Part shown: piece by piece, positions 4,342 through 64,000 of the stretch
Numbering within the stretch: the first letter of the stretch is position 1
Layout of the letters: each line of letters starts with the position of its first letter
Assembly (NCBI GenBank): GCA_964016885.1
Contig: OZ024747.1
Span: 89,962,001-90,026,000, forward strand
Reading direction: 5' to 3'
Length of the DNA stretch: 64,000 nt
Source: Eledone cirrhosa
Taxonomy: Eukaryota
The notes under the pieces: generated by a model
Seen by the model: the letters and a program-made list of their open reading frames with translations, nothing else
Database searches by the model: none
What the model was told of the DNA's origin: nothing
Translations under genes and position numbers: made by a program

Positions 4342-4856
4342 CCACCACCGGCATAACAACCACCGCCACCATCATCATCATCACCACCATCGTCATAACC
4401 ACCATCATCATCATCACCACCACCACCACCACCACCGTCATAACCACCACCACCACCACCACCACCACCACCACCACCACCACCACCACCACCACCACCA
4501 CCACCACCATCATAACCACCACCACCACCACCATCACCACCATTGTCATCATCACCACCACCACCACCCCCATCACCACCACCATCATCACCACCACCAC
4601 CACCACCCCCCATCACCACCACCATCATCACCATAACCATCACCACCACCGTCATAACCACCACCACCACCACCACCATCACCACCATTGTCATCATCAC
4701 CATCATCACCATCATCACCCCCACCACCACCACCACCATCGTCATCATCGCCATCATCACCATCATCCTCACCACCACCAACACCACCACCAACACCACA
4801 ACCACCATCATCATCACCACCACAACCACCACCATCATCATCATCATCACCACCTT
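3920..4856. repeat. Compound (CAT/CAC)n trinucleotide tract with higher-order 21-bp and ~120-bp periodicities
   Basis: Visible directly; it produces spurious poly-His/Thr/Gly/Asp ORFs in several frames. Confidence 0.95.
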
Positions 4857-5193
4857 CCCTGCCACATCCTTGCCAACACCTCCTTCCACCAATATGCCTG
4901 GTGCTGTGCTATTTATATAAATGTTTATAGCTGTCTCTTTCCTCCTATAGTTACCCCTTTCTATAATATCAGCAAGACTTTCAGCTTCCCTCTTTCTTTA
5001 GTTGTTCTCCTCAAAGTGTCAATTCTTCTGTTTTACCATTAGTCTGCAGCAGGGAACCTATTGCATGAGAAGCTTCCATTGTTCTCAGTCTTCTGAAACT
5101 GAGACAAGACTGGTTTCAAATGATAATCCATTGTTTTAAAGCCCATATTTTCTCTCTAGGAGTTGTAACCCCAAAATTGATTTGGAAGCATGA

Positions 5194-5224
<31 letters not shown>

Positions 5225-5378
5225 TGTATGTATGTATGTATGTATGTATGCATGCATGTATGTATGTATGTATGTATGTATGTATGTATGCATGCATGCA
5301 TGCATGCATGTATGTATGTATGTATGTATGCATGTATGTATGTATGTATATATGTATGTATGCATGTATGTATGTATG

Positions 5379-5412
<34 letters not shown>

Positions 5413-5446
5413 TGTATGTATATATGTATGTATGCATGTATGTATG

Positions 5447-5478
<32 letters not shown>

Positions 5479-5750
5479 CATGTATGTATGTATGCATGTA
5501 TGTATGTATGTATGTATGTATGCATGTATGTATGCATGTATGTATGTATGTATGTATGTATGTATGCATGTATGTATGTATGTATGTATGTATGTATGTA
5601 TGCATGTATGTATGCATGTATGTATGTATGTATATATGTATGTATGCATGTATGTATGTATATATGTATGTATGCATGTATGTATGTATGTATATATGTA
5701 TATATGTATGTATGCATGTATGTATGTATATATGTATGTATGTATGTATG

Positions 5751-5782
<32 letters not shown>

Positions 5783-5846
5783 CATGTATGTATATATGTA
5801 TGTATGTATGTATGTATATATGTATGTATGCATGTATGTATAGATG

Positions 5847-5880
<34 letters not shown>

Positions 5881-6206
5881 TGTATGTATGTATGTATGTA
5901 TGCATGCATGTATGTATGTATGCATGTATGCATGTATGTATGTATGTATGTATGTATGTATGCATGTATGTATGTATGCATGTATGTATGTATGTATGTA
6001 TATATGTATGTATGCATGTATGTATGTATATATGTATGTATGTATGTATGTATGCATGTATGTATGTATGCATGTATGTATGTATGTATGCATGTATGAA
6101 TGTATGTATGTATGTATGCATGCATGTGTGTATGTATGTATGTATGTATGTATGCATGCATGTATGTATGTATGTATGTATGTATGTATGCATGTATGCA
6201 TGTATG

Positions 6207-6240
<34 letters not shown>

Positions 6241-7013
6241 TGTATGTATGTATGTATGTATGTATGCATGCATGTATGTATGTATGTATGTATGTATGTA
6301 TGTATGTATATATGTATGTATGCATGTATGTATGTATGTATGTATGTATGTATGTATGCATGTATGTATGTATGTATGTATGTATGTATGTATGCATGCA
6401 TGCATGCATGTATTATGTATGTATGTATGTATGTATGTATGTATGTATGTATGTATGTATGCATGCATGTATGTATGTATGTATGCATGCATGTATGTAT
6501 GTATATATGTATGTATGCATGTATGTATGTATGCATGTATGTATGTATGTATGCATGTATGTATGTATGTATGTATGCATGCATGCATGCATGTATTATG
6601 TATGCATGTATGTATGTATGTATGTATGTATGTATGTATGCATGTATGTATGCATGTATGTATGTATGTATGTATGCATGCATGCATGCATGTATTATGT
6701 ATGCATGTATGTATGTATGCATGTATGTATGTATGTATGCATGTATGTATGTATGTATGTATGCATGCATGCATGCATGTATTATGTATGCATGTATGCA
6801 TGTATGTATGTATGTATGTATGCATGCATGCATGCATGTATTATGTATGCATGTATGTATGTATGTATGTATGTATGTATGTATGTATGTATGCATGCAT
6901 GTATGTATGTATGTATGCATGCATGTATGTATGTATATATGTGTGTATGCATGTATGTATGTATGCATGTATGTATGTATGTATGCATGTATGTATGTGT
7001 GTATGTATGTATG

Positions 7014-9185: not shown

Positions 9186-9256
9186 TATTTTATTATGCGC
9201 ATTTCAAAAACAAATATCATCACGGGATGATATCTGCGTTCTCATCAGATAAAATA
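9186..9256 (-). ncRNA. Minimal type-I hammerhead ribozyme (Penelope pLTR type)
   Basis: Minus strand reads UAUUUUAU-CUGAUGA-[16-bp stem II, loop CCGU]-GAAA-UGCGCA-UA|-AUAAAAUA: perfect 8-bp stem I, palindromic stem III AUGCGCAU, AUA cleavage triplet. Confidence 0.85.
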
Positions 9257-22758: not shown

Positions 22759-23040
22759 TACAATATTAAATAAATGGAAAACTATATTTATAAAACCATA
22801 TTTATTTCATTATATATATTTCGGGGATATCATATTAACAATATGCTATGCCTTCATCAGACAAAATACAATATAAACAGTTTTATAGATAAATATATTC
22901 GACATATATATAATGAAATAAATATGGTTTTATAAATATAGTTTTCCATTTATTTAATATTGTAAATATACTCCAAGTATTTGTCGAGTGCTTTTATATC
23001 AGTTATAAATATTTACTAGTTGTAACCCAACAATTTTAAA
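22759..23040. mobile_element. Penelope-like pLTR relic with ~60-bp perfect inverted repeat
   Basis: 22759-22819 is the reverse complement of 22904-22964; it overlaps a hammerhead core and sits inside (TA)n. Confidence 0.7.
22803..22868 (-). ncRNA. Minimal type-I hammerhead ribozyme
   Basis: Minus strand reads UAUUUUGU-CUGAUGA-[AGGCAUAGCAUAUU-GUU-AAUAUGAUAUCCCC]-GAAA-UAUAUA-UA|-AUGAAAUA: 8-bp stem I with 2 G-U pairs and a palindromic stem III. Confidence 0.78.
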
Positions 23041-31538: not shown

Positions 31539-33329
31539 TGTATGTATGTATGTATATATGTATGATTGTATGTATTCATGTATATCTGTATATATGTGTG
31601 TATATATGTATATATGTATGTATGTATATATGTATATATGTATGTGTATATGTATGTGTGTATGTATGCATGCAAGCATGTATGTATGTATGTACATGTA
31701 TGTATGTGATGCTTTGTGTGGTTTTATGAAGATAGTGGCTGATCAAAGAAGATGAATTGATTATATTTAGTCTAAGGAAATCAGGCTTCACAGATAATTA
31801 TAGACACAAGATACATGTTTCATGAAGATGTACTTCTTGGCAGATATTAAGTTGATGATGATGTGGCTGTGGAGAAGGATGTGGGAATGTAATGATGATC
31901 CACATCGTTAATTCTATATGAAATATTTAATGCAAAGTTAATTAAGATGAAAGTTCATCTATAGAATAGCTCAGAGTTTCTAAGAAATGAAACGGGAAGA
32001 CAGACAGTGAAAAGTAGAAAAGGAAGGAATTGTCCACTTATACTTTTATCGTAACTTTCTAATATTTGTATCCACTACACCTTTATTCAACTCACTTGAA
32101 GAATTAGAGCACAACCCATTATATGCAAAGCTAATTGCATGATCTGTAAATCTGATTATCGAAATATTGGTCAGCTCAAATTTAAATGGACTTTATCTTG
32201 AAACAGAGCTGGTTCTAATAGCTGTGGGTTGGTAAGAAGTATTGATATTCTAGTAATCTTTGATGATACATCAGTCTTGATACTGCAGCACAAGATAAAA
32301 GGATCATTAAACCAGTTCTTAAATACTGGATAAATATTACTCTATAATTTCTGAAAATTTCTGCAATTGGCAAGAAGCATTATCTTTTGAAGAACTATTG
32401 TGAGCAGAATTAATATTTATTATTATTGGACTGTTGAATTGCCAAGCAATTGTTTTACAACTGATGTACATGTTGCACCCTTACATCAACAGCATGCTAT
32501 TATAATAACACTGGGCATCTGTTTTAAATCCCCAAGAAAAACCAACCGAATTTATAGATGTTATCCCACCATCCTACTTCTGGTTTTCTTCTGGCTTTGC
32601 CCATAAAATCTGTTCATGAGGGAAGTAATACATAATTTGATTGGTTGCAATTAGTCTCATTTGTAAAGGATGGCAAGATATGAGATATTGAGTGCTATGT
32701 GATGTGAATTTGGGGTGGTAATGGCTATGAGGAGAGATGGATGATATGGTGGCATAGGTGAGCAAAAGGTGATATTTTGAATTTCTAGAGATATATGTGT
32801 TTTGTCTTACACATATATACATAGCCTACAGTTTATCAATTTATGAATAACAAAATGTTGCTCTCAAGGTTAATTTTCCTTGAAGAAAGTTGAGTGTGAT
32901 GAAAATATAACAAGTGTGTGTATATTAACAGTGTGAACATTTTTAGTTCATCAGTAAATTTTGTGTTTATAGAAACATGTGAGCTCGGCATTGAAATTTA
33001 AGATACCAGGATGGAACAAATTATTTAGCTTTCCACTGGTTCTTAGGTTACAGAATCTCAAACTCAGTCATGTTTTTGCATATTCCAGAATTTTCCATGT
33101 GATGTCAAAATTGATGTGTTTGTCTTTCAAAATAAACATGCATCATGGCAGATTGGTGTGTAAGTGTCTTGCTGAATCCCTGAAGATGTATGTGTGTTTG
33201 TGATATCATACTTAAAATAGCTTGGCTGTTAAACCAATATGTTTGATTTACTAGTGATAACCTTCAGCACAGTTGATAATGAAACTTGTGAAACACATAC
33301 TCTCTAAAAGTCATGATGTTGAAGTTATA

Positions 33330-62249: not shown

Positions 62250-62515
62250 TTAGGCAAGGCGGGTCTTCTGTATTACTGTGTAGCGCCAAAGATCTCGGTC
62301 CAGTGACATTGTCTCGGAGAGGTATAAGTGTGTGAGGTCGGAATTTATCAAGTCATCCCAGGTTTTTCTGAGTCTGCCTACTCCGTGGCTACTGTCTATT
62401 TTTATTGCCCTGCACTTTTTTATACAGTTGTCGTCTTTCATGCGCATCACATGACCATACCAACGTAGCCTTCTCTCGAGTAAACAACATCTGATCCATC
62501 TTATTCCTAATTTCT
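62250..62515 (-). mobile_element. RTE LINE 3' fragment
   Basis: REKRLRWYGHVMRMKDDNCIKKC...GRLRKTWDDLI...DRDLWR. Confidence 0.8.
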
Positions 62516-62518
62516 ACC

Positions 62519-62549
<31 letters not shown>

Positions 62550-62713
62550 GTATATATATATTATGTATTTGCAGATAGAGAAGAAAGAAAACAATGTAGT
62601 GAGAAAGGGTGATTAGAAGGGAAACATACACACAAACAGAAACATGCACACACATGTACATGTAAATATAAATATAAGTACATATATGTATATGTGTGTG
62701 TGTATATATATAC

Positions 62714-62759
<46 letters not shown>

Positions 62760-63270
62760 TATTTTCCGTTGTGTTGTAATATAAATATTACACACAGTAG
62801 ATTATCGGCTCACGTAGAGTTTGCTCGACGGTTCCAGTTGTAGTTCCAAAAGTAATCCGGAGAAAAATAGAAAGATTTGAATGGATACAGTTTAGTTGAA
62901 AGGAATTTATTGACACGTGTTTCTATAACAGTTACATAACCTAAAACAGCTATCTACAAACTTTTAGTTATGCAGACATTCAATATTTCAATGTTATTAT
63001 TTACTGTCATTTCATCAGAATAATATTACTGAGGACCTATTTAGTTTTTATAGAGAATATTAGGAGGGAGGGGTGAAGTTGTTAGAAGAATAGTTGAAGG
63101 AGTGGTTTTTCGATAGCAGTGAGAATTCTTGGTGGCAGTGAGTAATTAGATTCCCATCTGTTGTTTTGACATTTTTTATAGAATATATTATTGGTTATTT
63201 TTCTAAATCTATAGAAGGATTAGAGATAGTGAAGATATGCGTGGTTGGTTTTGTGTTTGCACTTAATTAA
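62760..63270 (-). mobile_element. Penelope-like element 3' end / pLTR
   Basis: Decayed GIY-YIG C-terminal 'LI..C.H' motif (GNLITHCHQ) upstream of a hammerhead core. Confidence 0.65.
62907..63023 (-). ncRNA. Type-I hammerhead ribozyme with enlarged stem II
   Basis: Minus strand reads UUAUU-CUGAUGA-[A-AUGACAGU...ACUGUUAU-A, 88 nt]-GAAA-CACGUG-UC|-AAUAA: canonical GUC site and palindromic stem III ACACGUGU. Confidence 0.82.
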
Positions 63271-63609
63271 CATTCAGACTTAAATTTTTCTTTCAAGTGT
63301 ACGTATCCTTTCACCCACGCATTCACACACAAATATATTTGCACACCTCTACAAAATACATATACACACAATTCACATATTCATACTTACATATACATAC
63401 ACATGCATACACATATATATACACACATGTATTCATGTACATACATACGCGCTCATGTGTATACATTTTCATACTCAACTTATCTTTATATACACACGTA
63501 TAGACACACACATATATACATACATACTCTAGTCCATGTGTACACACATTCACATACATACACATCCATATACACATATATACATACACCTATATACATA
63601 CATATATAC

Positions 63610-63652
<43 letters not shown>

Positions 63653-64000
63653 CATACACAAACATACATATACACACATACACATATATATATATATAAG
63701 CACTTTAATACATGAATACACTTACATCTAACTATACACATTAAACATATATATATATTTACTTATTTATATACATTTTCACATATATATACATACTTAT
63801 GGACGTTTTTAGACACATTCATTATCGCATATTTGTACCTATTCTCATCAGCATATCTTTTCATTATTAGTATGGTAATTTAAGGTTATTAATATACATA
63901 TATATGTTGAGAAGAGATTGTTTTTATATTTTTCTAACTAGATTAAGGTTTATATAGTTGGGGGATGTCCCTCTTTTATGTAATATTCGGCTTGTAGTGG

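Follow-up and report, generated by a model that had tools for sequence, protein, structure and literature searches.

A predicted long-armed, dimer-dependent hammerhead ribozyme in a Hydra-clade Penelope-like element of Eledone cirrhosa

Introduction

Can a hammerhead whose stem II runs to 88 nt still be a hammerhead, what shape would such an arm take, and how could the RNA cut itself? The question is raised by a locus close to the end of a 64-kb stretch of the Eledone cirrhosa genome (the window, meaning the whole stretch of DNA analyzed). We have examined the motif, its copies in the genome and the mobile element that carries it.

Results

The hammerhead motif

A search of the window, on either strand, for type I hammerheads yielded five candidate rows at four places. 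One of them, on the minus strand at 63023-62907, has an intact core and a GUC site; the scan thus recovered, at the same coordinates, the core, the cleavage site and the palindromic stem III that an earlier note on this DNA had described. Along the minus strand, the 5' strand of stem I (UUAUU, 63019-63023) is followed by the core strand C3-U4-G5-A6-U7-G8-A9 (CUGAUGA, 63012-63018), the 88-nt stem II domain (62924-63011) and the core residues G12-A13-A14 (GAA, 62921-62923). Then come the palindromic stem III ACACGUGU (62913-62920), predicted to form an 8-bp duplex between two copies, the predicted cleavage site C17 (62912) and the 3' strand AAUAA (62907-62911) that completes a 5-bp stem I, as indicated by the scan and by covariation. 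The type I core (CUGANGA, GAAA and UH) is complete and three helices surround it, with stem I open and covariation in stems I, II and III. The pair 10.1-11.1, usually G-C, is an A·A mismatch here. This does not exclude the motif from type I, since mismatches are known in active natural hammerheads.

Rfam gave no match at the gathering score over the whole window, and a search of 62500-64000 at E <= 5 produced 54 weak matches, none of them from hammerhead families. The suspicion that standard searches could miss this motif is therefore justified as far as Rfam is concerned, and its description as a structural variant of the hammerhead holds, in the sense of a Penelope-associated form that Rfam overlooks. 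We also searched the genome with a pattern made of the core halves, 60-90 nt apart, plus the window palindrome. It had 1,327 matches and its reversed control 0; with these numbers and a z of -4.6 for the fold of stem II (next section), the hammerhead motif is more than a chance occurrence.

Stem II as a predicted unbranched rod

Counting from the core, stem II is made of the A10.1·A11.1 mismatch, an 8-bp basal helix (63010-63003 with 62932-62925), a 5x3 internal loop, a middle helix of about 13 bp, another internal loop and an apical helix. The pair probabilities of the basal helix were 0.90-1.0, in agreement with the earlier description of an 88-nt stem II with an 8-bp base. Folding of the 88-nt domain gave -24.1 kcal/mol, with a z of -4.6; 0 of 300 shuffles did as well, and the wider 136-nt region had a z of -2.6. 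The same description had the stem branched, as a three-way junction with two inner hairpins, and the two pairs of complementary strands that this would need do exist in the subfamily of the window copy. However, both inner hairpins had a pair probability of 0.0 and the branched fold reached -14.9 kcal/mol (-17.5 for the best enforced version), between 6.6 and 9.2 kcal/mol worse than the rod. All 25 best suboptimal folds listed for stem II were rods, and in an older copy the values were -11.3 for the branched form against -25.3. A covariance model of the branched form (see below) did better than one of the base alone in just 4 of 24 copies of a sister family. We consider the three-way junction hardly credible, and stem II is predicted to be one long unbranched rod. 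A shorter hammerhead, using a GAAA located inside stem II, was dropped; its stem III is weak and large-looped, and the rod would be broken.

Covariation with a sister family

The sister family used for comparison, which we call family D (L112 and L141-L170), is linked with pieces of Hydra ORFs that share 26-66% identity with the ORF of the window element. Its stem II is homologous and 78 nt long, its stem III reads ACAAUUGU, the site is GUU and the closing position is mostly A·A. RNAalifold gives its stem II as an unbranched rod; within the family just one of 30 pairs is double-changed, and in the program's fold the core strands end up in a non-catalytic helix. We then compared it with the family of the window hammerhead (family A) in an unfitted alignment of 18 family-A and 14 family-D copies, chosen among 57 distinct copies whose core is exact. 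MAFFT misplaced a gap in the upper rod between the two families, so the count was restricted to stems I and III and the basal helix. These were 94.9% paired, against 28-51% when the strands were slid, and 6 of their 17 pairs were double-changed between A and D. Stem I stands out, with both partners different in four of its five pairs, and the centre of the palindrome is C-G in one family and A-U in the other. The core strand was invariant except for N7 in the 32 aligned copies, which had been chosen for an exact core. The earlier note had proposed folding and aligning the copies and had named a consensus without stem II base pairing as fatal to its idea; the base of stem II pairs and covaries between families A and D, and is included in the 94.9%.

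Three covariance models (rod, base-only and branched), each with 20 copies of family A as its sole input, were applied to 26 loci. For the 24 copies of family D the rod model averaged 32.3 bits, the base-only model 30.0 and the branched model 28.5. The rod scored above the branched model in 22 of the 24 and above the base-only model in 19, with one tie; the worst fit to the rod was L121. In the model-fitted alignment 14 of 42 pairs were double-changed, six of these in the upper rod, and 94.8% of the cells were paired compared with 36-46% after sliding, the apical helix being largely unaligned and mostly gapped in family D. Coming from a single comparison of two families, with margins of 2-4 bits and copies that are not independent, the covariation supports the rod without proving it.

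The host element

Judged from its sequence, the element is a young, intact and very abundant Hydra-clade Penelope-like retrotransposon, of which the window holds the tail end. The last codons and stop of its RT and GIY-YIG ORF (about the last 50 bases) occupy 63950-64000 on the minus strand, and the intact ORF continues past the window edge for 794 aa, stop to stop, in the neighbouring DNA (L031:2451-4835). Between ORF and hammerhead lies the rest of the 3' UTR or pLTR (63024-63949, minus strand), including a microsatellite-rich stretch, which is repeated 3,596 nt upstream. The repeated hammerhead region (L031 1250-2851 with 4846-6448) has 98.4% identity, and the upstream repeat at 3,596 nt is followed by an inverted, 5'-truncated arm. 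The 150 scored RT matches were all about 100% identical and free of stops. The frame has 785 aa in most copies; a one-base homopolymer difference (L031:2451-2510 against L032) gives the window copy its 794-aa frame and another C-terminus. An intact ORF between the repeats rules out a short non-coding retrozyme. Nor could we find the decayed GIY-YIG C-terminus that had been placed upstream of the hammerhead, the ORF being intact beyond the window edge: tblastn of 122 proteins against the window found nothing in 63030-63950 and matched only at 32957-33241. That second place, on the minus strand, is a worn Hydra-type endonuclease C-terminus of another family (about 30% identity, E 2e-6).

The protein carries the motifs RVRWK, DKT, RDD (365), CNCTYPDNC, IIY...YVG (662), CKLC and CRH, and has no GxKF/Y. 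These are the features expected of the Hydra clade: a single ORF with RT followed by a C-terminal GIY-YIG; RWK present, GxKF/Y absent and DKT in place of DKG; a CxCx5C linker, with CxxC and CxH around E and N and no CCHH (its absence judged by eye, one Cys lying within the GIY-YIG core); and insertion into (TA)n. The unit of 3,596 nt exceeds the 'generally under 3 kb' of the clade, a tendency and not a strict rule, because of the long microsatellite-rich 3' UTR. The label was given since the motifs match those that define Hydra in Craig et al. (2021; PMC8557442), a placement by motifs in which the published Hydra proteins were compared by eye. Homologues in the protein database were 32-38% identical among the matches listed (120 of 382), and among these 120 RWK appeared in 80, DKT/S in 119 and the linker in 112. 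A Pfam scan returned 0 families for 3 of 3 proteins. Downstream of the insertion, at 62250-62513 on the minus strand, there is an 87-aa frame, presumably the C-terminus of an RTE-type LINE protein from its resemblance to one.

Copies and subfamilies

Among the matches to the core-plus-palindrome pattern that were listed (100), nearly all belonged to family A. A variant of the pattern with a 3-nt insert had 1,830 matches and another with U at 11.1, which gives an A-U closure, had 524, both with 0 in the reversed control. These sets overlap in part, so we estimate about 3,000 copies. With a 521-nt query against the 3.0-Gb genome, all 40 scored matches had 99-100% identity.

The A·A closure had been presented as a property of this copy. 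Actually, all 45 full-length alignments keep it, in a count that includes overlapping loci repeatedly; the young subfamilies are fixed for A·A and family D commonly has it, while A-U is found in older copies. The latter look older because they have more private changes. In them the basal helix extends to 11 bp, whereas the young A·A copies have lost two basal pairs. The changes that mark the subfamilies are mostly in loops, or are one-sided and keep the pair.

An intron in stem II?

The insert in stem II could also be read as a retained spliceosomal intron, with splicing acting as a switch between the long and a normal form of the ribozyme; in another version an upstream donor would be joined to the same acceptor and half of the ribozyme would be deleted from the mRNA. 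The speculative intron is a 64-nt GU...AG stretch (62941-63004, minus strand) that starts with GUAAAU and ends with UUUUAG/G, or UUUUCAG/G in older copies, where a branch-like CUAAU precedes the acceptor. Excising 63004-62941 leaves a 24-nt product with a perfect 9-bp stem and a 4-nt loop (-8.1 kcal/mol). In the young subfamilies GUUGAU became GUAAAU, which cost the stem two pairs, and families B, C and D also have an AG after a U run in the 3' arm. Penelope-like elements (PLEs) are described as retaining introns, and that of D. virilis as having one that ends at the hammerhead, in the accessible text of Cervera and de la Pena (2014; PMC4209133). However, the U run is explained by the pairing of the rod, further AGs sit between the branch-like site and the acceptor, and most of family D has no GU at the matching place. 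Processed (spliced) genomic copies were discarded as a sign of splicing: the precise internal junction appeared in 0 of 39 pattern matches and a recurrent upstream junction in none of the 30 loci inspected, a weak argument since PLEs retain introns. Four sequencing runs, of a kind that is not recorded, contained neither the joint nor a 64-nt gap, their contigs being of a sort that drops rare forms. On balance we find the intron quite improbable. If it were true, the long-armed ribozyme of the unspliced RNA would be damped and splicing would give a compact one with a 9-bp stem, and the element would choose between transposition template and cut RNA.

Two further runs, X5 and X6, cover the stretch at low depth and do not enter into the evidence. 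One of the four runs, X2, shows 13 A>G places and 3 T>C between 62740 and 63330. Eight of the 13 are absent from run X1, six of them in stem II, and one of the eight is a genomic variant. The A>G pattern looks like A-to-I editing of the antisense strand.

Copy ends

We collected the ends of 96 distinct copies, the first 30 loci having been picked with a query that favours long ends. None of the 96 ended at C17. In 53 the end was at +163/164 past C17 and in 34 at +43 to +52, of which 31 were at exactly +45; the remaining nine continue into the ORF. Nearly all ends abut (TA)n. On the minus strand of the window the first preferred end corresponds to 62867, and beyond it a 118-nt tail (62749-62866) reaches the second preferred end, +163, followed in this copy by (TA)n. 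When both outer ends of a two-armed insertion were visible, one arm ended at about +45 and the other at +163 in 19 of 19 cases, an unusually clear record of two-site internal priming. Family D has a short end near +60, plus longer copies. A hairpin is predicted in the tail (62770-62796, minus strand), some 20 nt before the +163 end.

The cut site was rejected as the 5' end of insertions, with 5 of 16 at C17+1 against 7 of 18 at a control base, no excess, and none leading into the ORF. Since insertions end past the cut site, the template must reach beyond it, as either uncut RNA or a re-joined circle. The data on the ends cannot separate the two.

Predicted pairing of two copies and proposed ribozyme activity

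The palindrome of stem III is predicted to form a duplex of -10.3 kcal/mol between two molecules and a hairpin of +2.4 within one. In the monomer the probability of stem I is close to 0 and the active fold lies 3.8 kcal/mol above the minimum. The active dimer reaches -55.9 kcal/mol against -48.4 for two monomers and is 4.2 above the dimer minimum. Besides, the centre of the palindrome covaries between families although it could not pair within one strand. Dimeric hammerheads of PLEs were reportedly treated by Lunse et al. in 2017. The results point to slow cutting at the GUC that would require two copies to be base-paired by their palindromic stem III, with stem II as a rod, and we hold this with fair confidence; it is probably a slow, dimer-dependent and protein-assisted ribozyme.

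The following mechanism could be proposed. In a transcript of the tandem locus two hammerheads would be present at a distance of 3,596 nt, and their pairing would involve the 8-nt palindrome together with both stems I. The rod, folding on its own, would keep the basal helix positioned even though the 10.1-11.1 pair is A·A and the sequence is AU-rich. In the predicted fold about 30 bp separate its end loop from the core, more than the usual loop 1-loop 2 contact would span, which would mean a low rate, maybe dependent on the element's protein; an internal loop could stand in for that contact. Reverse transcription would start inside the RNA, at +45 and +163, with one start per nicked strand of the (TA)n target. 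The template would be uncut RNA, or a circle cut and re-joined, and the cut would not set the ends of the insertion.

U·U is the best-tolerated mispair at 10.1-11.1 (PMC3088659), so A·A is expected to be slower. The metazoan PLE hammerheads cleave weakly and as dimers, and a circular RNA template was proposed for them, according to the accessible part of Cervera and de la Pena (PMC4209133). In Anolis, the PLE hammerhead needs protein, and the RT has two internal start sites and uses uncut RNA as template in vitro (PMC11167929).

Against an active ribozyme, the hammerhead of the young subfamilies might be a near-dead passenger of the terminal repeat, with the rod kept for protein binding, for RNA stability or by inertia. 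The most recent subfamilies have lost the A-U closure and two basal pairs, yet made about 3,000 copies, no copy preferentially starts or ends at the cut site, and the hammerhead is dispensable in the Anolis element, where its mutants had no effect on insertion in vitro (PMC11167929). However, families with just 26-66% identity over the matched stretches of their proteins have retained the core, the palindrome and stem I, with compensatory changes. Hydra hammerheads often have a mismatch at 10.1-11.1 (U·U in 14 of the 26 rows of the table accessible in PMC8557442), and the axolotl hammerhead with U·U still cleaves, as a dimer, in the portion of PMC7229834 available. We regard the passenger as unlikely and prefer the slow, dimer-dependent ribozyme.

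Comparison with known systems

The Hydra-clade PLEs with C-terminal EN of Craig et al. (2021), in the accessible part of that paper (PMC8557442), share with the window element RWK, DKT, CxCx5C and CxxC/CxH, and also the (TA)n target, a type I hammerhead near the 3' end and a short self-complementary stem III. Of the 26 rows in their table, 15 have a mismatched 10.1-11.1 pair (14 U·U and one U·C), none of them A·A. The mismatch would thus be a habit of the clade, with A·A and the length of the arm falling outside that table. From A9 to G12 we counted 12-26 nt in the Hydra rows and 88-92 nt in the window family, so that on these counts its arm is three to seven times longer than those of the relatives published there. 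The nearest precedent in the table is a stem II of about 54 nt, the longest, in a spike-moss PLE-X marked as deviant. The unit is also longer (3.6 kb, generally under 3 kb in the clade), and so is the tail (118 nt; for PLEs 30-40 bp have been described). In the literature we found no description of such a long stem II in PLE hammerheads, subscription journals and key supplements being mostly outside the scope of this search.

The metazoan PLE hammerheads, as given in the accessible text of Cervera and de la Pena (2014; PMC4209133), are likewise present in both terminal repeats, about 3 kb apart, with a helix I of 4-5 bp, a helix II base of 7-8 bp (longer than usual) and a palindromic helix III with a predicted dimer. 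Unlike them, the window hammerhead lacks G10.1-C11.1 and its helix II extends some 70 nt further. PAc of Anolis (PMC11167929) has, as here, an AT-rich target, two internal RT starts that define a tail and no ends at the cut site. It belongs to the Poseidon clade and its hammerhead overlaps the ORF start, whereas in the window element it precedes the ATG of the next unit by about 210 nt. Animal non-LTR retrozymes, in the available parts of PMC7229834 and bioRxiv 10.64898/2026.07.22.740005, also have a type I hammerhead, dimer cleavage (predicted in our case) and possibly circular RNA. They are short, non-coding tandem units, in contrast to the window element, which is autonomous and has an intact ORF.

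Other hammerheads in the genome

In the clearest copies of families B and C the core halves are 84-101 nt apart, the palindrome is the same and the closure is G-U; family C is located about 0.5 kb downstream of Hydra ORF ends. Single worn copies of both are not distinguished from shuffles by their folding (z -1.5 and -0.07). A further 101 matches had 30-59 nt between the core halves, against three in the control. Elongation of the arm is, on these counts, a spectrum in this genome, with the 88-nt form near the top. L101-L140 and the 30-59-nt matches comprise several hammerhead families, with stems II of 30 to 101 nt and the same palindrome. Just upstream of a family C hammerhead there is a near-perfect hairpin of about 80 nt (L121:1480-1569, -41 kcal/mol), possibly the junction of two inverted arms.

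The other two hammerheads of the window, both on the minus strand, have stems II of 36 nt (9194-9248) and 31 nt (22811-22860) and palindromic stems III; that at 22811-22860 resembles the copies at L153 and L159. The same 3' UTR as the main motif contains, at 63798-63855 on the minus strand, a hammerhead-like CUGAUGA followed after 34 nt by AAAAAC-GUC, dead or a product of chance. It has A for G12 in every aligned copy, old or young, and stem I is absent in the older ones.

Discussion

Long arms escape Rfam and length-limited descriptors, so hammerhead counts would be too low in genomes such as this one, and calls of 'no hammerhead' in them may merit re-inspection. The reason why PLEs keep hammerheads is an open question on which a young and intact family of about 3,000 copies bears. 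Its natural variants, with A·A or A-U closure and rods of 78 to 92 nt, allow a direct test of the dependence on dimers and on protein.
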